From positions 91,523 through 155,522 of the forward strand of contig QZKN01000016.1 of the NCBI GenBank assembly GCA_003598175.1: DNA of 64,000 nucleotides, in the 5' to 3' direction. Both the position numbers and the translations under genes were made by a program. The notes below the pieces were generated by a model. The model was not told the DNA's origin. It did not search any database and saw only the letters and a list, made by a program, of their open reading frames with translations. Shown here one piece after another: positions 2,596 through 24,986 of the stretch; position 1 is the first letter of the stretch, and each line of letters starts with the position of its first letter. The DNA comes from Candidatus Omnitrophota bacterium (GTDB lineage: Bacteria > Hinthialibacterota > Hinthialibacteria > Hinthialibacterales > Hinthialibacteraceae).

Positions 2596-2896
2596 GTATG
2601 GCAAAACAATTTCACTACCGTTCATTCACCGACCTTCTTTTTTAAATGTTGCATGAATTAATTATATACAACCATACCAGCTCAACCAGGCAAACCATTT
2701 AAACAATCATTATCGCACCCTTATTTTTTTATGCTCATAACCTATTCATTATTAAGAAGTTATGGAAGAAATGGAATGGGATTGGGGAAAAAATGAAAAT
2801 CTTTCTTGCAAATTATGATAAAGTAGTATACTATTACATATAGGTAATTTTCATGAAACTTTGTAACTTTACTTTAATCTTTTGGTGTGATACGAA

Positions 2897-3490: not shown

Positions 3491-3513
3491 ATAGAAAATC
3501 GAGGTTGATCAAG

Positions 3514-6799: not shown

Positions 6800-7675
6800 T
6801 TAACGGATATCACCATCCATCACGTCCATCGCTTTCATGCGGCGAAGCTCCGCTTGTTGCAATTGGCAAAGAAGATTGCGATAGATGGGGATCATCACCA
6901 TGGTTCCGATCACGCCGGGCAGGAGAAAGGCGTACCAACTTGACCATAAGGCGCCCACCATCAGTAAAATGAAGCCTGTCGCAAGCAGAATGATGGAACA
7001 TGCAATCATGAAAAGCCCCATCGCTTGAATGAATCCTTTTCCCCTACCGCGGGACGCCAATGATCCCGCAAGGCCGCCGAAGAGTCCGCCAAACACTCCC
7101 AGCAATGTGCCCGGAAGCCATTGCCAATTGCCGGATACGGTAAATAATCCGGTTTCCATCTGCAATAATTGTAAATTTCGAATCCAAACGGTTCCCGGCC
7201 CTTCCATGCGAATTCCCAATCGAGCCGCTGACGGCTGTTCACCTTCCTTCAAGAAAAACGGCGTTTTCACGGAACGCCAATCGCCGGTTCCGGTCAATGC
7301 ATTGTCGAGCGCTCGTGAAAAATATTCCTTCCCTCCCTCGAATAGGCAAAGCATCTCAATATATGCTTTGGACGAAACGGATTCCGCGCGGATTTCGGCG
7401 TTGTATAGCAATGTACAGTTGTCGATATCTTTCAAGGGAATTGTGTAAAGGGGAATGGAGAGCGCTTGATTTCCATTATAGCTGATTTTCAGCGAATTCG
7501 GATCATCGGCCGCCACTTCCACGGAAATCAGGCTCATCAACTGTTCATTGAGCTGTGGAACCTGATCGATTGTGATGTTTGCCAATTCGGCTGCATATCC
7601 CCCAAACGCCATACCGACTGACGCCGCACACATAACAAATACACTTATCCATCGTATCGTAACGTTATATTTCAT
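6800..7675 (-). CDS. membrane protein, hypothetical (signal peptide plus C-terminal TM helices)
   Basis: MKYNVTIRWISVFVMCAASVGMAFG signal peptide. C-terminal Gly-rich TM segments. AAAGGA 9 nt upstream. Starts immediately after the stop of the upstream small gene, so an operon. No M56 HExxH motif, so not BlaR1. Confidence 0.45.
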   Translation of the reverse strand: MKYNVTIRWISVFVMCAASVGMAFGGYAAELANITIDQVPQLNEQLMSLISVEVAADDPNSLKISYNGNQALSIPLYTIPLKDIDNCTLLYNAEIRAESVSSKAYIEMLCLFEGGKEYFSRALDNALTGTGDWRSVKTPFFLKEGEQPSAARLGIRMEGPGTVWIRNLQLLQMETGLFTVSGNWQWLPGTLLGVFGGLFGGLAGSLASRGRGKGFIQAMGLFMIACSIILLATGFILLMVGALWSSWYAFLLPGVIGTMVMIPIYRNLLCQLQQAELRRMKAMDVMDGDIR

Positions 7676-7688
7676 TTTAATCATCCTT

Positions 7689-7991
7689 TCAATCTTTAGT
7701 TTGCATTGTTTGCTTGAACGCTTGCAATAATTTTCGCGCAGTCGCCGGATCAATGGCGCCTTCAACAAGAAGAATTTGTAATTGCCGTTGAAACGGATCT
7801 TTCCATGCGGGATTGTCGGCGATTTTCACTTTTTCGATCAATCGATCCAAACGTAGACGAATGGTGGGATAAGAAATCCGGTATTCTTCCGCCAACGCCT
7901 TTAACGAACCCGAGGCCAACAAAAACCGCTTCAAAAATTGAAAATCCTCCTCGTCCAGAGCGTGAATCCACGCCGGAAGTTCTCGTTCCAT
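7689..7991 (-). CDS. small DNA-binding protein (DUF2089-like HTH)
   Basis: 100 aa. C-terminal ...LKALAEEYRISYPTIRLRLDRLIEKV... helix-turn-helix-like segment. Confidence 0.4.
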   Translation of the reverse strand: MERELPAWIHALDEEDFQFLKRFLLASGSLKALAEEYRISYPTIRLRLDRLIEKVKIADNPAWKDPFQRQLQILLVEGAIDPATARKLLQAFKQTMQTKD

Positions 7992-8130
7992 CGATTTTTC
8001 GCTCCCTCCTGACTTGAATTTAATTCATATTCACTTTCATTATATTCAAGTTTATGGCAACTTCAAAATAATTCAAGTGGATTTTAACAAAATTAAAGGC
8101 GGATGAACGGACTGATGGCATGGCTATGCA

Positions 8131-8373
8131 TTGATCTTTGAGGGGGATCCCATCCAATTACATGATTCTCGATCTTTGATTAAACCTGCCTTTGATATGG
8201 CCGTTGCGCTTGCCCATGCCATATATGACTGCTATTACCTGGCTTTGGCGCAAGAACACGACGCCTCGGTAGTTACCGCCGACCGGAAGTTTTATGAGAG
8301 AGTAATGAAAAGCCCTTACGCCCATCGAATTCGATGGGTGGAAGAGCCGCCGGTGGTTCTTACGGAGGTGTGA
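8131..8373 (+). pseudogene. PIN-domain (VapC-like) toxin, C-terminal fragment
   Basis: ...AHAIYDCYYLALAQEHDASVVTADRKFYERV... matches the C-terminal half of a VapC PIN domain. The N-terminal half with the first acidic residues is missing. Confidence 0.5.
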
Positions 8374-8398
8374 TCGGCGCAGCTGTCAATGACTGTTT

Positions 8399-8640
8399 TT
8401 AAATCCAGTCAATGAGCCTCGACGAAGCGGAGGGAGGCCGGTTGATCAAGCGGAATGGCAATTTCGCGCGTTTCGGAAACGAGAAGCGATTTTCGCAGAG
8501 GGTCTCGCGCTTGATGGGGATTGTGGAGGAGGAACTCGGAATACTTGGCGGCGCAGACGGGGCAGAGAGCGCGATGATCGGCTTCGTGTTCCTTATTCTT
8601 CCGGAGGGTGAAAACATGCCGCTCTTGTTTCCCTGATCCA
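8399..8640. repeat. approx. 240-bp imperfect direct repeat, copy 1 (pairs with 10320-10560)
   Basis: Direct DNA comparison shows about 85 % identity to 10320-10560, e.g. cgacgaagcggagggaggccggtt... and ggaatacttggcggcgcagacggggcagagagc are identical. Confidence 0.85.
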
Positions 8641-8700
8641 TAGAAATTATCCTTATTGATATATGATGCTGAATCATACCAAATCGGTGGAGTTTCGGAG

Positions 8701-9078
8701 ATGAGTTCTGCTTCAGAACAATGGACGCAACAAGCTCATTACGATCTGGTGACGGCTCAAGCCATGTTCGACGCCGGACGATATTTGTACGTTCTTTTTT
8801 GTTGTCAACAGGCGGTGGAGAAGATGCTCAAGGCGATCATCGCCCATAAGACTATGGAGTTGCCGCCGCGAGTTCATCAGTTGACACGTTTGGCGGAAGT
8901 GGCCGGCTTGACAATGACCGAGAAGCAGACGAACTTTCTCCGGTTACTTTCAAACTATTACCTACAAACCCGTTATCCGGATGAAATCGTAAATCTTGCC
9001 TCCCAGGTAAAAAAGGAGAATGCTCTGTCGCTTTTGGAACAAACTCAGGAGATTATTCGATGGTTGACCTCGATATAA
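8701..9078 (+). CDS. HEPN-domain protein
   Basis: ...LFCCQQAVEKMLKAIIAHK... and ...RLLSNYYLQTRYPDE... are HEPN signatures (Rx4-6H-like). GGAG before the ATG at 8701. Confidence 0.7.
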   Translation: MSSASEQWTQQAHYDLVTAQAMFDAGRYLYVLFCCQQAVEKMLKAIIAHKTMELPPRVHQLTRLAEVAGLTMTEKQTNFLRLLSNYYLQTRYPDEIVNLASQVKKENALSLLEQTQEIIRWLTSI

Positions 9079-9569
9079 CAATGGAAAATCGGATTCAAAT
9101 GGCGCTGACTGTAATCTCCCGTTTTACCCACGTGGTTTGCGCTTATCTTTTCGGCTCGCAGGTGGATGGAACCCCTGACCAATGGAGCGATATCGACCTG
9201 GCCGTGTTTGTCGAAGGAATGGAATCCTGGGAACTGCACGAACGTGCCACAGTGGCAGCCCTGGTTCAAAAGGAAGTGGGAGACGATGTGGACGTTCGAT
9301 TTTTCCCCAGCCAGGCTCTTACCCATCATGATCCGGCCGGTTTCGCCGCGTGGGTGATTACTCATGGCATCAAGGTGATAGAAATACCAGAGAAAGGGAA
9401 TTCGTATGAATACCACCGAAATCAGGAAAATGAGCCGAATCGAACGCCTGCAAGCCATGGAGGCGCTTTGGAACTCGCTTCTCGAGGACGAATGCGAAAT
9501 GGAGTCTCCGGAATGGCATCGGGACATCCACGAAGAGAGAAAAAAGCGGATCGAAACCGGAAAGGCTGA
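9060..9569 (+). CDS. minimal nucleotidyltransferase (MNT) partner of HEPN; C-terminal extent uncertain
   Basis: ...CAYLFGSQVDGTPDQWSDIDLAVFV... is the GS...DxD nucleotidyltransferase motif. Overlaps the HEPN gene by 19 nt. The frame stays open to 9569, overlapping the next small gene, so the true stop is unclear. Confidence 0.6.
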   Translation: MVDLDITMENRIQMALTVISRFTHVVCAYLFGSQVDGTPDQWSDIDLAVFVEGMESWELHERATVAALVQKEVGDDVDVRFFPSQALTHHDPAGFAAWVITHGIKVIEIPEKGNSYEYHRNQENEPNRTPASHGGALELASRGRMRNGVSGMASGHPRREKKADRNRKG

Positions 9570-9585
9570 ATTTCATTCTCTGTAG
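9406..9585 (+). CDS. small addiction-module antitoxin-like protein (59 aa)
   Basis: MNTTEIRKMSRIERLQAMEALWNSLLEDE... resembles the 'putative addiction module component' family that pairs with RelE/ParE toxins. Below the 60-aa ORF-track cut-off, so found by manual translation. Confidence 0.5.
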   Translation: MNTTEIRKMSRIERLQAMEALWNSLLEDECEMESPEWHRDIHEERKKRIETGKAEFHSL

Positions 9586-9651
9586 GAGTTGAAGGCGAAA
9601 CGGGTATCATGAAGATTCGGAACAGCGGTGCATGGCAACGATTGAAACGCG

Positions 9652-9957
9652 ATGATGTATAAAATTGAATACGCGAATAAAACCGTTCTCGATAATCTGA
9701 AGAATTTGTCTACGTATGTGCGTAAACAAATCTTGAATCGTATCGATAACCAGCTGCAGTATGAGCCGATAATTGAAACAAAACATCGAAAACCCATAAT
9801 TGGCTTGATTCCCCCATGGGAGTATGTAGAACCGATTTGGGAGTTGCGGATCGGCGAATATCGCGTTTTCTATGACGTGGATGAAGCGGCAATGGTGGTG
9901 AAAATTCGTGCAATTCGACACAAGCCGCCGCATAAAACAACGGAGGAAATACTATGA
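9652..9957 (+). CDS. RelE/ParE-family type II toxin
   Basis: ...ELRIGEYRVFYDVDEAAMVVKIRAIRHK... matches the RelE/ParE C-terminal core. Overlaps the next gene by 4 nt. Confidence 0.75.
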   Translation: MMYKIEYANKTVLDNLKNLSTYVRKQILNRIDNQLQYEPIIETKHRKPIIGLIPPWEYVEPIWELRIGEYRVFYDVDEAAMVVKIRAIRHKPPHKTTEEIL

Positions 9958-10202
9958 AGACAATTGGAATTGAACAAGCAACCTTGGATATGTGTATGGA
10001 AAATATCCAGCAGGAACGCGTTGTTCTTATGCGTAACGGCAAGCCTTTCGCGCTTCTTGTCGGCGTCGAAGGGATGGATAAAGAACAATTGGAATTAGGA
10101 AGCAGCGCTAAATTCTGGAAACGGGTTGAAAAATGGCGTAAAGAAAAAACGATTAGCCGCGCCGAACTGGAGCGGCGACTTGATGAGATCAAGGAAAAAT
10201 GA
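9954..10202 (+). CDS. Phd/YefM-like antitoxin
   Basis: ...QQERVVLMRNGKPFALLVGVEGMDKEQLEL... matches the Phd/YefM N-terminal fold pattern. Confidence 0.55.
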   Translation: MKTIGIEQATLDMCMENIQQERVVLMRNGKPFALLVGVEGMDKEQLELGSSAKFWKRVEKWRKEKTISRAELERRLDEIKEK

Positions 10203-10319
10203 GCCGAAAACGGTTAGATTCATCGGACAAGTGAAGGGGCGTATCGGCTGTTGTGGGAATGAAGGGTGATAGGGCTGTCGATTATGAATTAGAATCGGCG
10301 CGGTTCTCCAGCGCCGTCT

Positions 10320-10560
10320 TCAAATCCAGCCAATGCGGCTCGACGAAGCGGAGGGAGGCCGGTTGGTCGAGCTGTATGGCAATTTCGGGCGTTTCGGAAT
10401 CGAGAAGCGATTTTTGCAGATGGTCTCGCGCTTGGTGGGGATTGTGGATGATGAATTCGGAATACTTGGCGGCGCAGACGGGGCAGAGAGCAGGGGTGGC
10501 AAGGGTGGCGTTGTTTCCACCCTTGTGAGAAATCGCGATGGTTTCAGGTAATGGTACACA
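10320..10560. repeat. approx. 240-bp imperfect direct repeat, copy 2
   Basis: See copy 1. A minus-strand frame ends in ...ALCPVCAAKYSEFIIHNPHQARD...LRFVEPHWLDLKTALENRADSNS. Confidence 0.85.
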
Positions 10561-10714
10561 CAATTATTTATTTGGAGCCCACGCATCGAAACCAAAGTCT
10601 GACGTGACCTTGTCATGATTTTTATATTGCGATATGATTTGAAAAATTTTTGAATTTCGAATTTTTTTTATATCCCTTTGATTTACGTCCATTTGGCGGT
10701 GGTGTATCATCATA

Positions 10715-11803
10715 ATGGGATCAATAGAATTGAATATTAACAAGCAAAAGAATAAATTCATCGGTGTAGATTTATTCGCCGGAGCAGGAGGCATGTCTCT
10801 TGGTGCGGAGATGGCGGGGATTGATGTAAAACTTGCCGTTGAAAAAGATCATCATGCCGCAGCAACCTATGCACATAATTACCCGAATACGAGGTTGTAC
10901 ATAGGAGATATTGCCAATATCGATGAAAAATGTCTTCCGAAGAAAGAGAATAACACCATTCTATTCGGTGGGCCTCCTTGTCAGGGATTTTCGACCTCAA
11001 ATCAAAGAACAAGAGGTTCAAAAAATCACTCTAATTGGTTATTTCAAGAGTATATTAGAATTGTACGGCTTTGGCAGCCGGATTGGGTGGTTTTTGAAAA
11101 CGTCAAGGGAATCATCGAAACCGAAAAGGGAATCTTTGTTGAAAGAATTCAAAATGATCTTGCCGATTCGGGATACACAACAACGCACGGTGTGCTTTGT
11201 GCCAGTGATTTTGGAGTTCCACAGGTTCGTTCACGATTCTTTCTCATCGGCTCAAGTCACGGATTCAATGTTGATTTCCCAAAACCGTTAATGAAAGATC
11301 CCGTGACGGTCAAAGAGGCGATTTCTGATTTACCGAAGTTGGATAATGGGGCAAATTATGATTTTCTTCCCTATCCATGCAAACCTAGATTCCAATATGC
11401 TAGAAACATGAGAAATGGAGATATTGGTTGTTCTAATCACAACGTGACACGGAATGCTGCGTATGTCATTGAAAGGTATAATCATATTCCACAAGGCGGC
11501 AATTGGGAGGATATTCCGGAATCTCTGATGGCCAATTACTCGGACAGAAAACGATGCCATACAGGTATTTATCACAGGTTGGATGCGGATAAACCATCCG
11601 TTGTCATTGGTAACTTTCGGAAGAATATGCTTATTCATCCAACACAAGATCGCGGTTTGTCTTTGCGTGAAGCAGCACGTCTGCAATCTTTTCCTGATTG
11701 GTATGAGTTCATGGGATCGATTGGTTTTCAGCAGCAACAGGTGGGGAATGCCGTTCCGCCGTTGCTTGCGATGTCGGTCTTTTTCATACTTACACGTAAT
11801 TAA
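10715..11803 (+). CDS. dcm: DNA (cytosine-5)-methyltransferase
   Basis: Motif I FAGAGG, motif IV GGPPCQGFS, motif VI ENV, and C-terminal QxGNAV. AT-rich relative to flanks. Confidence 0.9.
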   Translation: MGSIELNINKQKNKFIGVDLFAGAGGMSLGAEMAGIDVKLAVEKDHHAAATYAHNYPNTRLYIGDIANIDEKCLPKKENNTILFGGPPCQGFSTSNQRTRGSKNHSNWLFQEYIRIVRLWQPDWVVFENVKGIIETEKGIFVERIQNDLADSGYTTTHGVLCASDFGVPQVRSRFFLIGSSHGFNVDFPKPLMKDPVTVKEAISDLPKLDNGANYDFLPYPCKPRFQYARNMRNGDIGCSNHNVTRNAAYVIERYNHIPQGGNWEDIPESLMANYSDRKRCHTGIYHRLDADKPSVVIGNFRKNMLIHPTQDRGLSLREAARLQSFPDWYEFMGSIGFQQQQVGNAVPPLLAMSVFFILTRN

Positions 11804-11849
11804 TAAATATATTATAATAAGTAATAGCAGGAGTTGTATTGTGGCATCC

Positions 11850-12914
11850 ATGACAACCGTCATCTATAAACCAGTGGATGGTCTTCGATACTATCTTGAG
11901 GAACGTTACTTGGGAAAGCGCGAACAATTTCCTGAAGATCAAAAAGACTACCCCAACTTCTTTCGAAATATTGAGGATTATATGAAAAAGCATGTTCATC
12001 AAGAGGTAATAATTGGTGCAGCTCTTCAAGGATATGGACTGCTTAATGATCACGGTAAGGAACATATCGCAATGGTCATACAACGAGCGGGACTCATATT
12101 GCAGGGTAGAATAGAAGACCTTTCAGGGTATGAAATATATCTCTTGCTGCTTGCTATACATTTTCATGATGTCGGCAATATATACGGCCGAGATGATCAT
12201 GAGCATCGTATATTTGAAGTTATGGAAGAATTGGGTACATTACTCCCATTAGATAGCCCTTCTAAAAAATATGTAGCTAAAATCGCCATGGCACACGGTG
12301 GGAAGATAAATGACAGCAAAGACACCATCTCGACACTTTTGATGAGTGATTATCTTCAGGGCATGCATATACGTCCTGCTTTAATCGCTGCTATCCTCAG
12401 ATTTGCAGACGAGATTGCAGATGATCACACTCGGGCTTGTCGCTTCCTAAACAAAACTAAACAAATACCACCTCGAAATGAAGTTTTTCATCGATATTCC
12501 GAGTGTTTGCAACAGGCAGCAATTGATGGAAACACTTTGATCTTAAAGTTCGACCTTTCGATGGAAAAAGCTTTGAAAACCTGTTCAAAAGAGAATAAAC
12601 AGTCATCCAGAGGGTACAGCAAAGTGTTCCTTTACGATGAAATATTGGAGAGGCTAAAAAAATGCCTTTGTGAACTCGAATATTGTGCCAGATATTCACG
12701 TCCCTTTATTCAGATCAATTCCATTAGAGCGGAAATCGAGGTACACGCCTCAAACATTCTTAATCCCCTTTATAAGGATAGTATTCTCCTGAGGCTTTGC
12801 GGATATCCAGATATGCGTAATAAACCTATCTGTGATCTCCTCGAAAAACAACCACTGGCTATGAACGGACAGGAATTAAAGCATCAAATTCTGGAGAAGA
12901 GTAATGCCAAATAA
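11850..12914 (+). CDS. HD-domain (metal-dependent phosphohydrolase-like) protein
   Basis: H...HD signature: ...DHGKEH...LLLAIHFHDVGNIYGRDDHEH... GGAG before the ATG at 11850. Stop overlaps the start of the next gene. Confidence 0.5.
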   Translation: MTTVIYKPVDGLRYYLEERYLGKREQFPEDQKDYPNFFRNIEDYMKKHVHQEVIIGAALQGYGLLNDHGKEHIAMVIQRAGLILQGRIEDLSGYEIYLLLLAIHFHDVGNIYGRDDHEHRIFEVMEELGTLLPLDSPSKKYVAKIAMAHGGKINDSKDTISTLLMSDYLQGMHIRPALIAAILRFADEIADDHTRACRFLNKTKQIPPRNEVFHRYSECLQQAAIDGNTLILKFDLSMEKALKTCSKENKQSSRGYSKVFLYDEILERLKKCLCELEYCARYSRPFIQINSIRAEIEVHASNILNPLYKDSILLRLCGYPDMRNKPICDLLEKQPLAMNGQELKHQILEKSNAK

Positions 12915-14691
12915 CATATCTGTATCAGAGCCAACCAATCCGTTTACCGTCATTAGTCCTGAGAATTTGGACGCTCATACTGCCGTACAACTATTTGTCG
13001 ATTTATTCTCTGATTTTCCACAAGTTCGAAATCCAGGGCATTCTCTGATTTTTGGTGCCCGTGGTTCTGGCAAGAGCATGATGTTTCGCTGTCTCCTACC
13101 TGATGTACTCATGCTTCACAAGAATTGTACGTTCACTGACTTGGATTTCCTTGCTTTTCATGTCCCCATAAAGAACACACAACTCCGAATTACCGACCTC
13201 CAGAGGCTGGATCAACACCACGCAACATTTCTTATAAACGAACATTTTCTCACTCTTTCTTTAATAATTGAGGTGCTTCACTCTTTAAAGTATTTAGAAT
13301 TTTTGCCTTTCCAGGAGTCAGACTATCGAGATTTCTTTGAAAAGATGTATACCTATCGTCTTCGACTATGCGGCTGTACAACAAAATGTGTATTTCGCAA
13401 TAGTTCAACCAATGATTTTTTTGAAACTCTTTACGATCACATGCTCGAAATGCATGCTGAATTCATTCAATACATACTGCAAATCAGTCCGGACAGGGGA
13501 GTTCCTGTTCCACCTTATAATCTCCAGCTTCTTACTTTCCAGGGCTTTTTAGTCCCCTTTTTTCAAGGTTTAAAACGTCTACCCGGCTTTCCGCTAAAGA
13601 ATATTTACTTATTTATTGATGATGCTGATAACTTAAGCAAAACGCAAACCCAGATTTTGAATGCTTGGCTAGCAACCAGAACTCAACCGGAGATCAGTCT
13701 TAAAGTTTCTGCACAGATTGGCAAGTATAGGTCCTTTGTATCTCCAAATGGCACATCGGTTGAGTCTCCACATGATTATCAGGAAGTGAACATTTCCGAC
13801 AAATACACTACAAGCAGAACAGTATATTTTAAGCGGGTACAAGCGATTATAGAAAAACGACTCGATCTTGCAGGAATTAGGGGAATCACTCCAGAAGATT
13901 ACTTTCCTCCATATAAAAAACAGGAAGATGCGGTAAAAAAAGAAGAAGAACGGCTGCGTGCTGTCTGGGAAAAAGAAGGACGCGGCCATCGACCCGGCGA
14001 CGATGCTTTGCGTTACGCAAGACCTAATTACATTCGAGACTTAGGAGGATCTAGAAAGTCTCGTTCGAAATATATGTATGCAAGTTTTGGGCAACTTGTC
14101 CATTTATCATCCGGTGTCATAAGGTATTTTCTGGATTGTGCAGCGTTGATGTTTGATGAGACAATAAAAGTGAAAGGACCGCAACAATCGTTAAAATATA
14201 TTCCACATGAGATTCAAAATAAGATTGCCCGAGAAAAAGCAGATAAAATGATGTTCTCTCAGTTTAGAAAACTAGAGAAAGATGAATCTGTAATAAAAGG
14301 AGAACTCGGTGTTGTACAGAAACTTCAAAATCTCATCTTCTCCATGGGCTATACATTCCACGACATTCTAACCTCTGATAGATCGGAACGTCGAGTTTTT
14401 TCGATCGCTTTATCTAACACCCCTACTGAGGAAATAAAAGAGGTTCTTACATTCGGTGTTCAAATCGGCTACCTCCATGAAGCCACAATTGGAAACAAAG
14501 ATGGTACGGGACGAACGTGGCTATATATAATGAATCGTTGTTTATCTCCCCTTTTTGTTTTAGATCCAACTGGATTCGCAGGTTACTTATTTGTAACTAA
14601 TGAAGCGTTGATTAGGGCGATGTATAATGGAAAACCATTAAGAGAAGTATATGCCAGCGATGAACCCGAGCAATTAACCTTGTTTGATTAG
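12904..14691 (+). CDS. P-loop NTPase, 595 aa (Walker A GARGSGKS, Walker B LFIDDAD)
   Basis: Walker A/B motifs seen in translation. Start overlaps the upstream stop by 11 nt. No recognisable nuclease or helicase motifs by eye. Confidence 0.55.
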   Translation: MPNNISVSEPTNPFTVISPENLDAHTAVQLFVDLFSDFPQVRNPGHSLIFGARGSGKSMMFRCLLPDVLMLHKNCTFTDLDFLAFHVPIKNTQLRITDLQRLDQHHATFLINEHFLTLSLIIEVLHSLKYLEFLPFQESDYRDFFEKMYTYRLRLCGCTTKCVFRNSSTNDFFETLYDHMLEMHAEFIQYILQISPDRGVPVPPYNLQLLTFQGFLVPFFQGLKRLPGFPLKNIYLFIDDADNLSKTQTQILNAWLATRTQPEISLKVSAQIGKYRSFVSPNGTSVESPHDYQEVNISDKYTTSRTVYFKRVQAIIEKRLDLAGIRGITPEDYFPPYKKQEDAVKKEEERLRAVWEKEGRGHRPGDDALRYARPNYIRDLGGSRKSRSKYMYASFGQLVHLSSGVIRYFLDCAALMFDETIKVKGPQQSLKYIPHEIQNKIAREKADKMMFSQFRKLEKDESVIKGELGVVQKLQNLIFSMGYTFHDILTSDRSERRVFSIALSNTPTEEIKEVLTFGVQIGYLHEATIGNKDGTGRTWLYIMNRCLSPLFVLDPTGFAGYLFVTNEALIRAMYNGKPLREVYASDEPEQLTLFD

Positions 14692-14699
14692 GATATACT

Positions 14700-15695
14700 A
14701 TGAAAACAGATACACGACCGATACTTTCTGCTTTGCCAGAAATTCTAAAAGATAGATGTGGTGCATTTATTTGCTGCGCAAGCTATGAAGAAAGATCTCG
14801 CTGTATTTCTGGCGCTGTTAAAGACCTCCCCTTTGAAAGAGTTGTAATTTTTGCGATAGCGGATATTTTCTCTGGTATCGAGGATAGGGCTTTAGAAATA
14901 AAAAGTAATTTTAGCAACAAAACAAACTCAGAAATTGTTTTGACAAAAACTCATGAGCCACTTTTTACTGCTAATGTGGTTGCGAAATCGTTAAGGCGAA
15001 TTATGGATGACGGTATAAATGACATTTTTATTGATATTACAACGTTTACACATGAATTGCTTCTGATATTACTAAGACAGATCAATAGATTTAAAGATAG
15101 ATTAGCGAAAGTAACATGCCTATACACAAGTGCACGAAGTTATTCTATCGGTGATCCAGATGACAGAAAATGGCTTAGCAAAGGTTGCAAAGAAATTAGA
15201 AGCGTAGTGGGATTTCCTGGTTTACTAGTACCTGGTCGTCCCACATGCCTGATTGTGCTTGTGGGATTTGAGCATGAAAGGGCCACTAGGACGATCGTTG
15301 AGATGGATCCTGAACTTCTACTTATAGGAAAGGGAATTCCGAGTGTGGAACATCTAACGGATGAATCTCATAAAGCACCAATGGAATTTTTCCACAATCT
15401 TGTGCAAACTATGGTATCAAGTCGAGGTTCAGTTGAGCCTTTTGAGTTCTCATGCAGAGAGCCTTATCAGACTGCGAGGACTATACTTGAATTGGTTACA
15501 AAAAAACCTGACTTTAACCATATCATAGCTCCATTGAACACAAAAATATCTACAGTTGCTGTTGCTTTAGCCGCCATGGCGAATCAAAAAATCCAGGTGT
15601 GTTATGCAGAACCTGAAACATATAACTTCAATGGATATTCAGAACCAGGTGATAAAGTTTCCATTTTTGATCTGGATTGGGATCGTGAGTTATGA
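14700..15695 (+). CDS. hypothetical protein, 331 aa
   Basis: Long ORF translationally coupled on both sides (8-nt gap upstream, ATGA overlap downstream). No motif recognised. Confidence 0.4.
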   Translation: MKTDTRPILSALPEILKDRCGAFICCASYEERSRCISGAVKDLPFERVVIFAIADIFSGIEDRALEIKSNFSNKTNSEIVLTKTHEPLFTANVVAKSLRRIMDDGINDIFIDITTFTHELLLILLRQINRFKDRLAKVTCLYTSARSYSIGDPDDRKWLSKGCKEIRSVVGFPGLLVPGRPTCLIVLVGFEHERATRTIVEMDPELLLIGKGIPSVEHLTDESHKAPMEFFHNLVQTMVSSRGSVEPFEFSCREPYQTARTILELVTKKPDFNHIIAPLNTKISTVAVALAAMANQKIQVCYAEPETYNFNGYSEPGDKVSIFDLDWDREL

Positions 15696-16603
15696 AGATG
15701 ACTGACAAAAAACTGAATAATTTGGAAGATGTCTTAACTCATTCGCTTACCGTCTTGGATGATGGCTTTGTACGGCTTGTTGATTTCATGGGAGACGATT
15801 CCTCCATTGTACAAGCCGCTCGTGTATCATATGGAGAAGGTACGAAGAAGGTCAGCGAAGATCGTGACCTTATTCGCTACCTTATGCGCCACCGCCACAC
15901 CACTCCATTCGAAATGTGTGAAATCAAATTACACGTTCGCGTTCCGATGGATTGTTGGCGTCAGTGGATTCGACATCGAACGGCTAGCGTAAACGAATAC
16001 TCAACAAGATACTCCATCGCTATAGACGCTGCTCAAAAAACCGATCCCCAAAAATGGAGGATACAATCTAAAAGTAATAAACAGGGAAGTGATGATTTTT
16101 TAAATAATGAAGATGGTGAATTTCTTTCCAAACGAGAAAAGGAAATTCAGGAAAAATGTCGAGAAATTTATGATGAAAGATTAAATTACAGTGTTGCCCG
16201 AGAACAGGCTAGAAAAGATTTACCTCTTTCAACATATACAGAAGCCTATTGGAAAATTGACCTTCACAATCTTCTTCACTTTCTTGAATTGAGATTGGAT
16301 GAAAAAGCTCAATATGAAATCAGACAATACGCGAATGTAATCGGAAACGAAATCGTAAGTAGATGGGTTCCCATCACTTGGGAGGCGTTCAAAGAATATC
16401 GGCTTAATGCTGTTCATCTTTCAGAAACAGAGATTAAAATTTTATCTATGATGTATACTAACGATATAAATTCTGTAGTTGGTTTCATGAAAGAGTGCGG
16501 CTGGTTAGAAGAAGCTGGTGAAATATTGAAACCAAAAGGAGAAACCCGTGAATTTGGAGAAAAGCTTATACGGTTAGGGATACCTATACCCTGGAAAAAA
16601 TAG
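15692..16603 (+). CDS. thyX: flavin-dependent thymidylate synthase family protein
   Basis: Canonical ThyX signature R-H-R-x7-S (WIRHRTASVNEYSTRY). N-terminal ...GFVRLVDFMGDD...AARVS...TPFE... aligns with ThyX. ATGA overlap with the upstream gene; 5-nt gap to Vsr. Confidence 0.8.
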   Translation: MKMTDKKLNNLEDVLTHSLTVLDDGFVRLVDFMGDDSSIVQAARVSYGEGTKKVSEDRDLIRYLMRHRHTTPFEMCEIKLHVRVPMDCWRQWIRHRTASVNEYSTRYSIAIDAAQKTDPQKWRIQSKSNKQGSDDFLNNEDGEFLSKREKEIQEKCREIYDERLNYSVAREQARKDLPLSTYTEAYWKIDLHNLLHFLELRLDEKAQYEIRQYANVIGNEIVSRWVPITWEAFKEYRLNAVHLSETEIKILSMMYTNDINSVVGFMKECGWLEEAGEILKPKGETREFGEKLIRLGIPIPWKK

Positions 16604-16608
16604 TTTCA

Positions 16609-17031
16609 ATGGCAGATAATCTTTCTTTTGAACAACGCAAATACTGCATGTCTCAAATACGTGAAAAAGATACAAAACCAGAGATAATAATCCGCAAAAT
16701 AGTTCATGCACTTGGATACCGTTTCAGACTTCATCGACGTGATCTTCCCGGTTGCCCTGACCTTGTTTTTCCATCTCGAAGAAAGATTATTTTTGTTCAT
16801 GGCTGTTTTTGGCACCGACATTCAGGATGTTCCAAGTCTACAACCCCGACGACCAGAAATGACTACTGGATAAAAAAATTCAAGGGGAACGTCAAACGTG
16901 ACCGCACGAACATTAAGTCGCTTCGTAATCAAGGTTGGGATGTATTGGTAATTTGGGAGTGTGAAACGAAAGAAACTGAAAAACTGTACGAAAATATAAA
17001 ATATTTTTTGGAAAAAAAGGACTGTTCATAA
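16609..17031 (+). CDS. vsr: very-short-patch repair endonuclease
   Basis: ...DLVFPSRRKIIFVHGCFWHRH... and ...RDRTNIKSLRNQGWDVLVIWECE... are diagnostic Vsr motifs. 140 aa. Confidence 0.9.
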   Translation: MADNLSFEQRKYCMSQIREKDTKPEIIIRKIVHALGYRFRLHRRDLPGCPDLVFPSRRKIIFVHGCFWHRHSGCSKSTTPTTRNDYWIKKFKGNVKRDRTNIKSLRNQGWDVLVIWECETKETEKLYENIKYFLEKKDCS

Positions 17032-17039
17032 TAAATAGG

Positions 17040-17359
17040 ATGAACTTCAGCGCGGGACGAAACTGGTAAGGAATAAAGTAAATTAGCGCGGCGTTCAGAG
17101 AATAGAGAATCGAACAACTGGGATGACGAATATGTAAAACCGTGAGGTATAAACGAAATTCTCCGAGAGAAACCACTTTTGTTTTTTTCGCATCAACAGC
17201 GTCGGAAATCAGTTGCGATTCATAAAAGGTCTGCGCCTTTCCCTCCATGAAAACCTGGTAAAGGATTTCCGCGCCACCCGGTATGACGGAAGTCACGGCC
17301 CCCTTCCGCCGCGGATCCGCCGCAAGGCGAACTATCGCTCCAACGTGATAAATCGGCAT
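17040..17359 (-). pseudogene. truncated ORF, apparently the N-terminal domain of a larger, possibly helicase-associated, protein
   Basis: MPIYHVGAIVRLAADPRRKGAVTSVIPGGAEILYQVFMEGKAQTFYESQL... then degenerates into antisense of vsr. Abuts the island boundary. Confidence 0.3.
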
Positions 17360-17387
17360 AAGCATCAAAACCTTTCCTATAAAAAAA

Positions 17388-17428
17388 CCGGGGTGATTAT
17401 TTCTTCCGAAAACCCCGCTTTTTTATTT
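17388..17428. terminator. bidirectional rho-independent terminator hairpin
   Basis: aaaaaaa-CCGGGGT-gattatttcttccgaaa-ACCCCG-ctttttta. GC stem flanked by A-run and T-run, so functional in both orientations. Confidence 0.55.
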
Positions 17429-18189
17429 TGTGTATATTTTTAAGAATTGTCCAGACCTGCGGGATGCGTTTGAAAATCCGCCGTCTCCTGTCCGCCGATG
17501 AAAGCGCCGCAAGGTTTGCTTTCCTCCTAACGCATGTGGTGGTATACTCCAAAACGCCTTAATACATAAAATTTAACGTCCTTGGCTGCCGTATCCTCGT
17601 AGGAAAAGAATCGTAAAACAGGGGCGAAGCGCCTGAGGCGTGTGTTAAGCGGCAATTGGAGCAGAAATATCAATTGGAAACAAAAGATTTCTATCAGCAA
17701 TTTCAAACCGGCTTGCTTGCAGATACGGAAGACTATCTGATTTGGGCAGACCTTTATGAGATGTTTCAGGAGAATCACCGGAAACTTAAGGAATTACAAT
17801 GATTGAAGCTTATTTTGAATCGTATGAAAAGACGATTCAAACGTTTCCTCCTATTCAGTCCTATTCACTCTACAAGAAAATCTATAATGTAAAACAAGGC
17901 TTTATCAGGGGGATGATTCTGTTTGACGATAACGCTCGACTTGGAAATTGCCCAAAAACCTTTATACCACTGATATAACAGAACCCGTTTAATCACGGCA
18001 TCCCTCCCGGCGTGTTATTTTTTTCATTTTGCGGATATTTTCAGGAAATGTCCGGACCAGGCAAACCAGGCACAAAACGCGTTGTCCAATCGCTTTCCCC
18101 ACTACTCTCCGAATGCTATAATCAGTGACATCGTCACGATTATCATTCATCATACTTGACAGAGTTGCCTGGCAGGGAAACACCGGATC

Positions 18190-18624
18190 ATGAGGATATA
18201 TTTGGATAATTGTTGTTTCAATCGTCCATTCGACGATCAATCGAAAATTCGGGTGCGACTTGAAACGGAGGCCAAAATACGAATTCAAGAGGAGTTATTA
18301 CACGCAAAATTTGAACTGGTATGGTCCTATATTCTTGAGGCGGAGAATCGGGCGAATCCTTTCGAAGAACGAAAACGAGAAATCTCCGCCTGGAAAAGGC
18401 AGGCTTTGGTGAAGATCGAAGAAAATCCGGAAATTTTAGCAAAAGCGAAACAATTTATTCGCGTGGGACTTCGCGAAAAAGATGCGCTGCATATATCTTG
18501 CGCCATTGCAGCCGCTTGCAAATATTTTCTGACGACGGATGACAAAATCTTAAATAAAAGCAGGATGATTGAAGAGATTGCGGTTATTGATCCCCTTGAA
18601 TTTATCAAAGAGGTATACCCATGA
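18190..18624 (+). CDS. PIN-like domain protein (putative toxin)
   Basis: MRIYLDNCCFNRPFDDQS...DALHISCAIAAACKYFLTTDDKIL... pattern of acidic residues resembles PIN-like nucleases. Confidence 0.45.
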   Translation: MRIYLDNCCFNRPFDDQSKIRVRLETEAKIRIQEELLHAKFELVWSYILEAENRANPFEERKREISAWKRQALVKIEENPEILAKAKQFIRVGLREKDALHISCAIAAACKYFLTTDDKILNKSRMIEEIAVIDPLEFIKEVYP

Positions 18625-18830
18625 TAACGGATACGGAAGTAAAAATAAAAGGGATGCAAGCCCTTGCGGAATCGTTGGGAAACGTGGGAGCCGAAAGGTT
18701 TATATCATTGATTCAGCGGGAACCGTTTGACTATACCGCATGGCAACGAACATTGTGGGAAGGCCAAAGCGTGGAAGAGATAAGCCGAAACGCCATGAAG
18801 ATTACCCGTAACCTGGCTGAACAATCGTGA
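18621..18830 (+). CDS. small protein, 69 aa, coupled to PIN-like gene (possible antitoxin/partner)
   Basis: ATGA overlap with the upstream gene. No motif recognised. Confidence 0.3.
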   Translation: MITDTEVKIKGMQALAESLGNVGAERFISLIQREPFDYTAWQRTLWEGQSVEEISRNAMKITRNLAEQS

Positions 18831-19051
18831 GCGTCAAGGAGAAGACGACAGCCTGTCTACGCAAGTATGCATATTATGGATTTTACCATAATTCAACCGA
18901 ACCATGGGGTAATTGTGCGGCGATGAGAGAATCGGGCTTCGGTTATTGGCGCCGGGCGCAGGCAGCCTTCGACACGGAAATTGCGGAAGATGCGTACTCC
19001 GAAACATTGAATAAGATCAAACCACGGCGCGAACAATCGGTTTCCTGTTGA
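18827..19051 (+). CDS. small protein, 74 aa, GTG start
   Basis: Overlaps the upstream stop, so third gene of an apparent operon. Weak. Confidence 0.2.
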   Translation: MSVKEKTTACLRKYAYYGFYHNSTEPWGNCAAMRESGFGYWRRAQAAFDTEIAEDAYSETLNKIKPRREQSVSC

Positions 19052-19196
19052 TCACTCATGAACCCGACTACAATGGCTCATCGTGATCGTATGCGACATT
19101 TCAAGGATCGTTTGTTTCATACTATGCGGAATGGATTGTTCGCTTGAAGAAAAGCGTATTTTCCAACGATTCCACGATAGAGATGGGGATATCAGG

Positions 19197-20684
19197 ATGT
19201 CGGTTCTACTCGCATTGGATCAAGGCACCACCAGTTCACGGGCAATTGTATATGACGCCTCCGGCGTCGCGCTGACCACGGCGCAAAAGGAGTTCGAGCA
19301 GATCTATCCGGAGGCGGGATGGGTCGAGCACGATCCGCGCGAGATCTGGTCCTCGCAAATCCAGGTCGCGCATCGCGCGTTGCATCAAGCCGGATTGAAG
19401 GCCAGGGATGTGGCCGCCATCGGGATCACCAATCAGCGCGAAACCACTCTTTTGTGGGACCGCCGCACCGGCGAACCGGTCCACAACGCGATTGTGTGGC
19501 AGGACCGGCGCACCGCGTCGTTTTGCGACGATTGCAAGAATAAAGGCTGCGCCGATTGGATCCAACAAAAAACCGGCCTGGTCATCGACGCCTATTTTTC
19601 CGGGAGCAAACTCCGCTGGCTGCTCGATCACGTTCCCGGAGCGCGGGAACGGGCGCAACGCGGCGAACTGGCATTCGGAACCGTCGATACCTGGCTGCTG
19701 TGGAACCTGACCGGCGGCGCCGCGCATGTCACCGATCCCAGCAACGCGTCGCGCACCATGCTTTTCAATATCCAAACCGGCGAATGGGACGACGAATTAC
19801 TAAAATTACTCGACATTCCGCGCGAAGTATTACCCGCCGTCCGCTCCTCCAGCGAAGTGTATGGAGAGACCGCATCCGGCGTGTTTGACAGCCCGGTCCG
19901 GATCGCGAGCATTGCGGGGGATCAGCAATCCGCTTTGTTCGGCCAAAACTGCTTCGAGCATGGCATGGCCAAAAACACGTACGGCACCGGCTGCTTCATG
20001 CTCATGAACATCGGCCAAACCGCGACGCTTTCGCGCCATCAATTGCTGACGACGATCGCCTGGAAAACCAATGGCGTGACCGATTACGCTTTGGAAGGCA
20101 GCGTCTTCATCGGCGGCGCGGTAGTGCAGTGGCTGCGGGATGGCTTGGGGCTCATCCAATCCTCCGCGGAAATCGAATCCCTGGCCGGCCGCGTTCCCGA
20201 TAGCGGCGGGGTGTATTTGGTTCCCGCGTTCGCGGGTTTGGGCGCGCCGCATTGGGATCAATACGCGCGCGGAACGATCGTCGGCGTCACGCGCGGAACC
20301 ACGTCGGCGCACATCGCCCGCGCCGCGCTGGAGGGGATCGCGTTTCAAGTCGCGGACGTGCTGGATGTCATGAAAGAGGATTCCGGCATCCCTATCAACG
20401 AATTGCGCGTGGATGGCGGCGCGTCCGGAAACAATCTCCTCATGCAAATCCAGGCGGATTTGTTGCGCGCGCCGGTGATTCGTCCGAAAAACGTCGAAAC
20501 TACTGCGCTGGGAGCCGCCTATCTGGCGGGTCTGGCGACCGGTTTTTGGAACAATCGCGACAGCATCCGCCAGGCCTGGCAGGTCGATCGCACCTTCGAA
20601 CCGCAATGCAGCGAAGACGAAATCGCCTTCCGCCGCGGCCGCTGGGCCAAAGCGTTGAAACGCGCGAAACACTGGGAACAATAA
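19197..20684 (+). CDS. glpK: glycerol kinase
   Basis: [20 protein letters not shown]...[31 protein letters not shown]... are FGGY-family GlpK signatures. 495 aa from the internal Met. Confidence 0.9.
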
Positions 20685-20745
20685 AATCGGAGCGCGGACA
20701 TCCTGTCCGCATCGGAAACACGCATTCCCATCATCCGTTCAAATA

Positions 20746-22359
20746 ATGGAAAGGGATCAAATCCCCATATCAATAACCATGGATCGAAACCAATTTCTTG
20801 ACCGCATCAATGAACAAAAAAAACCGTGGGATATCGCCGTCGTGGGCGGCGGCGCGACCGGAGTGGGCATCGCCGTGGACGCCGCCTCGCGCGGATATGA
20901 CGTGGTTTTACTCGAACAAAGCGATTTCGGAAAAGGGACCTCCAGCCGTTCCACCAAACTGGTTCACGGCGGCGTGCGCTACCTGCAACAGGGCAACATC
21001 TCGCTGGTGATGGAAGCGCTGAAAGAACGCGGCATCCTGCTGAAAAACGCGCCCCATCTGGTTCACGATATGCAGTTCATCGTACCCAATTATCAATGGT
21101 GGGAAGCGCCGTTTTACGGCATCGGCCTGAAAGTCTACGACCTGCTTGCGGGAAAATACGGCTTCGGCGCGTCTCGCCTGCTTTCCCGCGATGAGGTGCT
21201 CGACCGCATCCCCACGCTCGAACAGGACGGATTGCGCGGCGGCGTCAATTATCACGACGGCCAGTTCGACGACAGCCGCCTGCTGATCAATCTGTTGCAA
21301 ACCGCCGCCGAACAAGGCGCATGCCTGCTCAATTACGCTCGCGTCACGAAACTGGAAAAAGACGCGGAGGGATACATCAACGGCCTCGAATTTCGCGAGG
21401 AAGAAACCGGAGACGTCCATTTTCTGGCCGCCCGCTGCGTCATCAACGCCGCCGGACCGTTTTGCGACGATCTTCGCCGTTTGGACGAAGCGGACATCAC
21501 GCCAATGATCGCGCCCAGTCAGGGAATCCACATTGTGCTTTCCCGCGATTTTCTCCCCCGCGACACCGCCATTATGGTTCCTCATACCCGCGATGGCCGG
21601 GTCATGTTCGCCATTCCGTGGAACGGGCACGTAGTGGTCGGCACCACCGACACGCCCATTGAGCAGGCGAGTCTCGAACCCACTCCGTTTTCTCACGAAG
21701 TTGATTTCATTCTTGAAACCGCGAGCGATTACCTGGCTCGCCGCCCCTCGCGCTCGGATATTCTCAGCGTGTTCACCGGTATTCGTCCGCTGGTCAAGGC
21801 GGGCGATCACGCCAACACCGCCGCCTTGTCGCGCGATCACACCATTCATATTTCCAAATCCGGTCTGCTCACCATCACCGGCGGAAAGTGGACCACCTAC
21901 CGCCGCATGGCGGAAGATTGCGTGGATCACGCGATCGTCCTGGCCAGTTTGGAAGAGCATCCCTGCGTCACCAAGGAATTGCGCATCCACGGCTACCATC
22001 AACGCGCGAGTGAATTCGGCGATTTGGCGGGGTACGGTTCGGACGCGATTGCCCTGGAAGAACTTATGCGGGAACAACCGGAACTGGCGCAACCATTGCA
22101 CGAAGCGCTTCCCATCCGAGCGGCGCAAGTGGTTTGGGCCGCGCGCAATGAGATGGCGCGTACGCTCGATGATGTCCTGGCCCGCCGCACGCGCGCCCTT
22201 TATCTGAACGTCAAAGCGGCTCGCGCAATGGCGCCCGCCGTCGCCCGGCTGCTGGCCGACGAATTGGGCCGGGATGAAACCTGGCAATCCCGACAGATCG
22301 TTGCGTTCAACCAAATTGCCGATCATTTTGACGTCGATTTAATCCGTGAAATCAAATAA
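20746..22359 (+). CDS. glpD: FAD-dependent glycerol-3-phosphate dehydrogenase
   Basis: DIAVVGGGATGVGIAVDAASRGYDVVLLEQSDFGKGTSSRSTKLVHGGVRYLQ is the Rossmann GxGxxG FAD-binding region of GlpD/GlpA. Confidence 0.85.
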   Translation: MERDQIPISITMDRNQFLDRINEQKKPWDIAVVGGGATGVGIAVDAASRGYDVVLLEQSDFGKGTSSRSTKLVHGGVRYLQQGNISLVMEALKERGILLKNAPHLVHDMQFIVPNYQWWEAPFYGIGLKVYDLLAGKYGFGASRLLSRDEVLDRIPTLEQDGLRGGVNYHDGQFDDSRLLINLLQTAAEQGACLLNYARVTKLEKDAEGYINGLEFREEETGDVHFLAARCVINAAGPFCDDLRRLDEADITPMIAPSQGIHIVLSRDFLPRDTAIMVPHTRDGRVMFAIPWNGHVVVGTTDTPIEQASLEPTPFSHEVDFILETASDYLARRPSRSDILSVFTGIRPLVKAGDHANTAALSRDHTIHISKSGLLTITGGKWTTYRRMAEDCVDHAIVLASLEEHPCVTKELRIHGYHQRASEFGDLAGYGSDAIALEELMREQPELAQPLHEALPIRAAQVVWAARNEMARTLDDVLARRTRALYLNVKAARAMAPAVARLLADELGRDETWQSRQIVAFNQIADHFDVDLIREIK

Positions 22360-22422
22360 TCCTTCCGGACAGCTGGTCTCGGAAACGGTCACATTAACAT
22401 TATTTGTAAATGGGGTAATTTT

Positions 22423-23169
22423 ATGAATCCATACGTCGCTGAATTCATCGGAACCGCATTGCTTATTATTTTCGGAAACGGCGTTGTGGCGAACGTGCTG
22501 CTCGCGCGAACGAAAGGCCACAATTCCGGATGGATCGTCATCACCGCCGGTTGGGCGTTCGGCGTCTATGTCGGCGCGTTTTGCAGCGCGAAGTACAGCG
22601 GGGCGCATCTCAATCCCGCTATCACTGTCGCCTTGATCGCCAACGGCTCGATCGAATTTGTGAAAGCGATTGGATATATCATTGCGCAAATACTCGGCGG
22701 CATGTTGGGCGCAACGATGGTCTTTCTCTTCTACCGCGAACATTTTAAAATCTCCGAGAATCCAGATGAAAAACTGGCCTGTTTTTGCACCGCGCCCAAC
22801 ATTCGCAATTTGCCTCAAGCCTTCTTCTGTGAAGTGGTGGGAACCTTTGTTCTCATGTTCCCCCTCTTGCTGGTCACTTCGCCGAGTTTCATGCTGCCGG
22901 CGGCGGTGGGAGAACAGGAAATCATGATCGGGCTGGGCACGTTGGGACTGATTCCGGTCTCGCTGCTGGTGTTTGGAATTGGCCTCTCGCTGGGCGGAAC
23001 CACCGGTTACGCCATCAATCCCGCCCGCGACCTCGGCCCCCGCATCGCCCACGCGCTGCTACCCATCCCCGGCAAACGCGACAGCGATTGGGGATATTCA
23101 TGGGCGCCGGTTATCGGCCCTATCTTCGGCGCGCTGCTGGCGGTGCTGGTGTTTGCTATCATTACATAA
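22423..23169 (+). CDS. glpF: aquaglyceroporin / glycerol uptake facilitator (MIP family)
   Basis: Two NPA motifs (SGAHLNPAIT, INPARDLGPR). Six TM segments. Confidence 0.85.
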   Translation: MNPYVAEFIGTALLIIFGNGVVANVLLARTKGHNSGWIVITAGWAFGVYVGAFCSAKYSGAHLNPAITVALIANGSIEFVKAIGYIIAQILGGMLGATMVFLFYREHFKISENPDEKLACFCTAPNIRNLPQAFFCEVVGTFVLMFPLLLVTSPSFMLPAAVGEQEIMIGLGTLGLIPVSLLVFGIGLSLGGTTGYAINPARDLGPRIAHALLPIPGKRDSDWGYSWAPVIGPIFGALLAVLVFAIIT

Positions 23170-23312
23170 AAGTAAAAAAAAATATTCAATATCTCTGATT
23201 TTCGAGATAAGAGGAAACCAGACCTTCCTTGTTTTTTGTAATGACAATGAATACATTGTAAAAGATCAACGCATAAATAAAAGCATACTATCCGACAAGA
23301 GAGGAAATTTCG

Positions 23313-24860: not shown

Positions 24861-24986
24861 ATTCCACGATTTTTTTGCAATCTTAACCTTCTTCTCAAAC
24901 CAATGGGTAAACAGACCGATCCGGTATTCCTGCTGGCCAAATCGATTGAGAAGGAAGGAATCCCAGTATGATGGGGAGTCAATAAA

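Follow-up and report, generated by a model that had tools for sequence, protein, structure and literature searches.

A Dcm-linked gene block with an HD phosphoesterase, an ORC/Cdc6-type ATPase and a tandem-CARF protein, and the thymidylate synthases that accompany it

What brings a cytosine methylase, a mismatch endonuclease and a thymidylate synthase into one operon, and what do the genes between them do? The question is raised by a 64,000-nucleotide stretch of a Candidatus Omnitrophota metagenome-assembled genome (contig QZKN01000016.1, positions 91,523 to 155,522, assembly GCA_003598175.1; hereafter the window), in which six closely packed open reading frames (ORFs) lie head-to-tail on the + strand at 10715-17031. 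An earlier note, made from the letters of the sequence, took all six for a single restriction/defence or DNA-modification unit. A survey of homologous loci shows that the unit is a four-gene core (a Dcm-type methylase, an HD-CE protein, an ORC/Cdc6-type ATPase and a tandem-CARF protein), with ThyX and Vsr as optional accessories. At somewhat better than even odds (about 0.55), this block is a mobile, methylation-guarded, ATP-dependent anti-invader module that works along restriction-modification (R-M)-like lines.

The block and its conservation

The six genes of the block, with protein lengths in amino acids (aa), are as follows.

10715-11803, + strand: C5 cytosine DNA methyltransferase of the Dcm type, 362 aa; presumed self-marking component
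11850-12914, + strand: HD-CE phosphoesterase, 354 aa, with an HD domain and a C-terminal alpha/beta domain; presumed effector
12904-14691, + strand: ORC-CDC6-like AAA+ ATPase, 595 aa, Walker A at residues 50-57 and Walker B at 237-242; presumed DNA-binding motor or scaffold
14700-15695, + strand: tandem-CARF protein of the 'CARF6' family, 331 aa, without a fused effector domain; presumed ligand sensor or regulator
15692-16603, + strand: flavin-dependent thymidylate synthase ThyX, 303 aa, catalytic motif intact; accessory gene
16609-17031, + strand: Vsr very-short-patch T:G mismatch endonuclease, 140 aa; accessory gene

All six ORFs were found where the earlier note had placed them, on one strand and packed like an operon. 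Dcm and the HD gene are separated by 46 nt, the HD and ATPase genes overlap by 11 nt, 8 nt lie between the ATPase and CARF genes, the CARF gene and thyX overlap by ATGA, and vsr follows thyX after 5 nt; only the first value had been given differently, as 47 nt. The proteins called in the source record agree with the start of the HD gene and with the lengths of the three middle proteins, and the HD-CE sequence is identical to the NCBI-called protein P0121. Pfam and NCBIfam likewise agree with the families that had been proposed (Dcm, HD, P-loop NTPase, ThyX and Vsr), and the GARGSGKS, HD and RHR motifs that had been pointed out are all present. The description of the block as a horizontally acquired, AT-rich island also stands, as its GC content is 39.7% (38-42% for single genes, ThyX included) against 57-59% in neighbouring housekeeping DNA (59.4% in glpK, whose region starts 2 kb downstream, and 56.6% at 19083-24500), and the middle genes are not housekeeping genes.

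Whether the genes belong together was addressed with about 95 loci, taken from the contigs of three homologues, 80 species-representative genomes, one plasmid, seven IMG/VR contigs and the three closest relatives. All ORFs of each locus (labelled here with L-numbers) were scored with the six window proteins. Two subsets are used below: a non-redundant set of 83 loci, and a fully flanked set of 60 loci, for which no less than 3.5 kb of upstream and 3 kb of downstream sequence is available. The gene order had been expected to be conserved if the block were a real unit, and this is what the survey returned. In practically all 83 non-redundant loci, the genes for HD-CE, the ATPase and CARF6 lie directly next to one another and point the same way. 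The loci span more than 15 phyla, including Deinococcota, Bacillota, Bathyarchaeia, Planctomycetota, Acidobacteriota, Verrucomicrobiota, Pseudomonadota, Bacteroidota, Nitrospirota and the Candidate Phyla Radiation (CPR)/Patescibacteria. In the fully flanked set, CARF6 is present in 60 loci, HD-CE in 59, orthologous Dcm in 55, Vsr in 15 and ThyX in 12.

Methylase and presumed restriction genes are co-inherited, as in type II R-M systems, with Dcm adjoining this triad across phyla in 55 of the 60 fully flanked loci. The linked enzymes make up one group of orthologues, with E values of 1e-100 to 1e-166 to the Dcm of the window. The place and strand of Dcm differ between loci (upstream, downstream or on the opposite strand), yet the linkage to the triad stays, as would be expected of a functional partner. 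It is because the triad is contiguous and this linkage persists despite varying position that the core is drawn around four genes. The single module that had been proposed is thus real and its order is conserved elsewhere, but its core is smaller than six genes, with ThyX and Vsr each present in about a quarter of loci.

Might the block nevertheless be a chance juxtaposition within an assembled genome, in which an orphan Dcm-Vsr pair and a housekeeping thyX happen to adjoin a three-gene cassette unrelated to them? Every gene family involved is also found alone elsewhere, and the patchiness of ThyX and Vsr would fit such an origin. However, the linkage is kept across phyla, the identical six-gene order of the window recurs in L087, and ThyX shares both the low GC content of the island and an ATGA overlap with the gene upstream. 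Moreover, a single-copy gene is estimated to fall within a few kb of the module by chance in ~0.2-0.3% of loci, against ~23% observed for thymidylate synthases. The neighbourhood survey effectively refutes a chance assembly, to which we attach hardly any credence.

The surroundings of the loci are those of defence islands and mobile DNA, and include Thoeris, AbiTii, EcoRII, GmrSD, type I R-M genes, AbiE (on a plasmid), integrases and transposases. Among mobile elements themselves, the module is carried by only 7 IMG/VR contigs out of 2.9 million, by 4 plasmids and by one fragment from a phage collection. With so few viral and plasmid carriers, a phage or plasmid origin was rejected, and the module is mainly cargo of chromosomal islands.

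The core proteins and their proposed working

How could these four proteins act together? The R-M-like reading is favoured because the triad is lastingly paired with one methylase lineage, because it sits among defence genes, and because its ATPase belongs to the DNA-handling clade of the bacteriophage exclusion (BREX) and Ssp systems. The methylase itself matches Pfam DNA_methylase (2e-65), TIGR00675 (195 bits) and PADLOC MTase_II (3e-113), and its catalytic motifs PCQ, ENV and QxRxR are intact and visible in the translation. Its motif VIII-IX region, the site of target recognition, is well conserved across 70 loci, and the enzyme would mark host DNA by 5-methylcytosine (5mC) at a target conserved throughout the family. 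Vsr (TIGR00632, 157 bits against a cutoff of 97.9; Pfam Vsr, 5e-28) lies within a few kb of the triad in 25% of the fully flanked loci. Vsr enzymes compensate for 5mC deamination, and here Vsr would be an add-on that repairs the T:G mismatches left by the deaminated mark.

Dcm-Vsr type II R-M cassettes such as EcoRII resemble the module in combining a C5 methylase, Vsr and an adjacent restriction function, and in being mobile, AT-rich and located in defence islands; in L001, an EcoRII-Dcm-Vsr set even lies right beside a copy of the module. Unlike these cassettes, the window has a restriction partner of three proteins (HD, AAA+ ATPase and tandem CARF) instead of a single PD-(D/E)XK or HNH endonuclease, and Vsr is optional. 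A further multi-protein, ATPase-containing set that adjoins Dcm(-Vsr) in defence islands occurs beside the triad in L066, L073 and L076, and in the first two of these directly after the same methylase. It consists of wholly different protein families, none of whose domains are found in the window. L096 has a second, separate methylase downstream of the module, with a GHKL gene after it.

The ATPase matches Pfam ORC-CDC6-like (PF24389) at 4e-93. Its Walker A (GARGSGKS) and Walker B (FIDDAD) motifs are invariant in its homologues, which form 1045 clusters at 90% identity. In one source, a homologue goes by the name 'ORC-CDC6 family AAA ATPase', and the few other named ones are almost all "hypothetical". 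Between Walker A and B lies a fast-evolving insert of about 110 residues, within which residues ~121-200 are the most variable part of the protein. A profile of the ATPase returned nothing significant among solved structures, and PHROGs gave no match for either the ATPase or CARF6. PADLOC gives no system-level match for the ATPase or HD-CE; the module matches no catalogued defence system, in line with its earlier listing as a candidate undescribed module.

In BREX and Ssp systems, the ORC/Cdc6-clade ATPase is the DNA-scanning or scaffolding subunit (PMC12839542, PMC10853773). The window module resembles them in uniting an ATPase of this clade with a DNA-modifying enzyme and a phosphoesterase-type effector. 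It differs in having no PglZ, PglX, BrxA/B, BrxL, phosphorothioate (PT)-modification genes or N6-adenine methylase; its ATPase is half the size of BrxC, and a CARF protein is no part of BREX or Ssp. The Brx, Pgl and Ssp models of PADLOC do not match the window proteins, apart from SspH at a negligible E of 0.02, and PglZ and N6-methylase genes are missing among the neighbouring genes too. The eight-gene mad1-mad8 set of the methylation-associated defence system (MADS) is also absent, with only a marginal mad8 match in the P-loop region (E 7e-5, 20 bits).

HD-CE is the only candidate catalytic effector of the module. The protein matches Pfam HD-CE (PF24391, 1e-29) and has the H...HD...D metal-binding motif and all-helical fold of the HD superfamily; within its HFHD motif, H106 and D107 are invariant among homologues. 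Its predicted fold is generic, being closest to the PPX/GppA C-terminal domain and to cyclic-nucleotide phosphodiesterases, with deoxynucleoside triphosphatases (dNTPases) no closer. A profile search against solved structures gave nothing significant, and PHROGs yielded one marginal match, to a family of unknown function.

Paralogous pairs of an ORC-like ATPase and a tandem-CARF protein adjoin the main module in L052 (57-4977) and L093 (4948-8780), and in L093 the paralogous ATPase is fused to an N-terminal calcineurin-like phosphoesterase domain. These pairs, with their different phosphoesterase, support the view of an ATPase-CARF dyad with an exchangeable phosphoesterase effector. When metagenomes were scanned for the paralogous ATPase, just one locus was recovered.

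Under the R-M-like reading, Dcm would protect host DNA through its mark, the ORC/Cdc6-type ATPase would bind or scan DNA, and HD-CE would be the effector, a phosphoesterase that most probably attacks unmarked DNA as a metal-dependent nuclease. The tandem-CARF protein would offer a single pseudo-dimeric nucleotide-binding pocket and might gate or license the complex. The earlier suggestion of a multi-subunit, ATP-dependent restriction complex describes what the module looks like, with a methylase as its guard. The data establish the identities and folds of the gene products, their intact catalytic motifs, their co-conservation and their mobility, whereas cleavage of DNA by HD-CE, discrimination through methylation, sensing by the CARF protein and any part played by the thymidylate synthase are inferred.

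Several observations weigh against this interpretation. An intact orthologous Dcm was not detected within 3.5 kb in 5 of the 60 fully flanked loci, and one locus (L071) is without HD-CE. The conserved C-terminal segments of the ATPase look like winged helices, as seen by sequence inspection rather than through a profile or model. It is not obvious what a CARF sensor would do in a classical R-M mechanism, and no signal-producing cyclase was seen in the loci. Finally, a thymidylate synthase is missing from about 75% of loci, which excludes it from the core mechanism.

The least secure point of the model is what the CARF protein does. This protein had been described as having no recognisable motif, which proved incorrect: the CARF6 models of PADLOC match it at 2.6e-79, and Pfam HFX_2341_N (CARF) does so weakly. 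The protein is a Can1/SAVED-like double CARF domain, with the Rossmann-like CARF fold in two fused copies and an overall fold that resembles Can1. Profile-profile comparison of its two halves is statistically weak (E 0.0066), and their motifs align in register. Conserved motifs lie at the expected positions of CARF ligand-binding loops and outline a putative pocket (E30/R32, T117/H118, E191/R194 and N280/K282), on the strength of which the protein is predicted to bind a nucleotide ligand. It may be a sensor of host or phage nucleotides, or a structural or regulatory subunit.

This raises the question of whether the module is instead a ligand-triggered abortive-infection or signalling device. 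In such a device, the CARF protein would sense a nucleotide cue made in trans and switch on the ATPase and HD-CE, while Dcm and Vsr would form a pair of their own, either protective or hitch-hiking. Candidate cues are the cyclic oligonucleotides of type III CRISPR systems or cyclic oligonucleotide-based antiphage signalling systems (CBASS) encoded elsewhere, or modified pyrimidine nucleotides made by phages; HD-CE could be a phosphodiesterase that resets the signal. The CARF/SAVED fold with its conserved pocket motifs and the cyclic-nucleotide phosphodiesterases among the nearest structural neighbours of HD-CE are consistent with this, as is the finding that none of the operon proteins matches the profile of a known restriction-endonuclease or classical nuclease family. 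The paralogous ATPase-CARF pairs also lack a methylase or HD-CE of their own, though both pairs lie beside a copy of the main module.

On the other hand, no recurrent cyclase or Cas10 gene was seen near ~90 loci. Cas10 and CD-NTase genes are absent from the Pfam-annotated neighbourhoods and the recurrent clusters of the 83 loci, a result obtained without a dedicated cyclase profile search. The effectors Can1, Can2 and Card1 and the SAVED effectors of type III CRISPR and CBASS also differ from the window protein, which has no fused effector, has no Cas10 or CD-NTase in its neighbourhood, and keeps a methylase, an HD protein and an AAA+ ATPase as its constant partners. The retention of an orthologous methylase despite its moved position is hard to explain if the two are unrelated. 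A signalling device is therefore unlikely, albeit worth keeping in view, and the R-M-like reading is preferred.

Thymidylate synthase as an accessory

Why should a defence operon carry a thymidylate synthase? The coupling of ThyX to these genes had been singled out as unusual, and the link is real and repeated across loci. The window enzyme is a canonical ThyX by profile (Pfam Thy1, 1e-51; TIGR02170 thyX equivalog, 190 bits against a cutoff of 87.9), by its match to the solved ThyX 6j61 (251 bits) and by its RHR motif at 94-96. In these respects it is like housekeeping and phage ThyX proteins; indeed, ThyX is common in phages (PHROG 85). It differs from them in its setting: it overlaps a defence operon by ATGA, with translational coupling to the CARF gene upstream, it has the GC content of the island (38.8%), it accompanies the module in different phyla, and some lineages have ThyA instead.

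Of the 83 non-redundant loci, 15 have ThyX next to the module, as do four of the seven IMG/VR loci, all three of the closest relatives examined, and L093. A divergent branch with 30% ATPase identity also has it. The linked enzymes fall into two clades that are 24-35% identical to one another, both with RHR; a long clade occurs in at least six phyla, and a short one of ~209 aa in Bacillota and one Bacteroidota genome. Their positions vary as well. ThyX may follow CARF6, stand between Dcm and HD-CE (L014), lie on the opposite strand after Dcm (L031 and L039) or precede HD-CE (L093).

Four Flavobacteriales loci have a classical ThyA, structurally unrelated to ThyX, directly upstream of Dcm and overlapping its start. 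The flanks beyond these four genes are not syntenic; one locus has type I R-M genes there, one has an AAA ATPase, and the other two have integrase-like genes. With ThyA included, 19 of the 83 loci (23%) have a module-linked thymidylate synthase. The possibility that the linked ThyA is a variant that modifies deoxycytidine monophosphate (dCMP) was considered and rejected, as C146 and N177 are kept in all four.

The module appears to have recruited a thymidylate synthase several times independently. Because two non-homologous enzymes of the same activity were taken up, the conversion of deoxyuridine monophosphate (dUMP) to deoxythymidine monophosphate (dTMP) itself appears to be the selected trait. 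Two unusual loci suggest the same. In L015, which has ThyX at the other end of the module, a tyrosine integrase, a 796-aa protein and a thymidylate synthase-like protein with N177D lie upstream of Dcm (579-5353); this substitution is typical of dCMP-specific enzymes, Asn177 being the residue that specifies uracil. In L052, a fusion of MtrA, thymidylate synthase-like and pterin-binding parts precedes the paralogous ATPase-CARF pair.

What the activity contributes can be outlined in several ways. ThyX or ThyA would be a second add-on, useful to the system in some hosts, and is suspected of holding the balance of dUMP to deoxythymidine triphosphate (dTTP), possibly by reducing dUMP and dUTP, such that the uracil content of self DNA or a pyrimidine-nucleotide cue stays in a safe range. 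Alternatively, it may sustain dTTP when phages manipulate the nucleotide pool, or restore thymine in phages that replace it.

Another alternative places the defence itself in the nucleotide pool, where HD-CE would hydrolyse a (modified) deoxynucleotide upon infection while the thymidylate synthase rebalances or protects the pyrimidine pool of the host. The HD superfamily includes dNTPases and 5'-nucleotidases, the CARF domain is a nucleotide-binding fold, and thymidylate synthases of either fold have been recruited repeatedly. Yet roughly three quarters of loci do without a thymidylate synthase, and the presence of a sequence-specific DNA methylase and an ORC-type ATPase indicates discrimination at the level of DNA. 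The earlier idea of a nucleotide-depleting pair of HD protein and ThyX also gains no specific support from the generic HD fold described above. Overall, a pool-based defence seems improbable.

A related idea is that self and non-self are told apart by the C5-methyl state of pyrimidines, either in DNA (5mC, or thymine as opposed to uracil or hydroxymethyluracil) or in the nucleotide pool. The CARF protein would then sense pyrimidine deoxynucleotides, such as dUMP or phage-made hydroxymethyl-dUMP and -dCMP, and ThyX or ThyA would set the baseline of the cue or keep self DNA free of uracil. This idea is speculative and we regard it as quite doubtful. If it were true, the thymidylate synthase would be a working part of an immune system. 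The patchy displacement of ThyA and ThyX by one another among prokaryotes is well known, and islands carrying the module could, in that case, be among its vehicles.

Local setting and wider meaning

Two candidate signals frame the operon.

10610-10638, + strand: sigma-70-like promoter candidate upstream of dcm, TTGTCA-17-TATGAT, 10 of 12 consensus matches
17382-17424, no strand assigned: candidate bidirectional terminator, a 13-bp GC-cored hairpin with A-run and T-run flanks, inverted repeat 92% complementary

Promoter-like consensus matches are not commoner in this region than in shuffled sequence. The hairpin is the only good one with a T-run and corrects the position of the downstream terminator that had been proposed, as it lies ~350 nt past the Vsr stop; a scan with a terminator consensus found none directly after Vsr. 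No RNA family was detected by Rfam at 7500-19500, and the window contains no transfer RNA (tRNA) genes. On the minus strand, a 151-aa ORF without a Pfam match (16913-17368) converges on vsr and overlaps its end. The island may have disrupted a gene here and left this ORF as its truncated remnant, or the ORF may be no gene at all.

Other traces of gene traffic lie nearby. Upstream of the block, toxin-antitoxin-type genes occupy 8131-10202 (a PIN fragment, a HEPN gene paired with a Pol-beta nucleotidyltransferase, and a ParE-like toxin followed by a small ORF); downstream of the module, at 18190-18624, lies another PIN gene. A 198-nt direct repeat at 8373-8570 and 10294-10491, with copies 87% identical and 1921 nt apart, brackets the HEPN/nucleotidyltransferase and ParE-like cassettes and ends ~220 nt before dcm. 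Both copies form the C-terminal end of an ORF on the minus strand and have no Rfam match; the repeat may be a duplicated gene remnant or the scar of a cassette insertion. Further downstream, GC content dips at ~24500-26500, reaching 30% at 25001-26000 between flanks of 53-56%. This dip contains a 323-aa ORF (24987-25958) and is possibly another horizontally acquired insert. A 348-aa pentapeptide-repeat protein is encoded at 1549-2595, upstream in a region of mixed GC content.

What, then, does the block add to the known repertoire of prokaryotic defence? Its domain families are already represented in Pfam and PADLOC, and the system as such is apparently uncharacterised, as a modification-based defence with an unusual accessory. 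No description of the gene set or of its link to thymidylate synthase was found in the searchable literature or in PADLOC, although a classification of CARF proteins from 2020 may mention the neighbourhood. The module is widespread, yet source databases call its proteins "hypothetical" and PADLOC does not detect it as a system.

If the core acts as proposed, it would represent a new effector architecture for modification-based immunity, in which an HD phosphoesterase and an ORC/Cdc6 ATPase are combined with a stand-alone double-CARF sensor. It would also provide a case in which a sensor of the CARF type operates beyond CRISPR and CBASS signalling. That a defence operon has repeatedly and independently captured two unrelated thymidylate synthases is apparently unreported, and ties thymidylate metabolism to anti-phage defence in a way that can be tested. 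Thymine-replacing phages, or phages that manipulate dUMP and dTTP pools, would be a plausible target.

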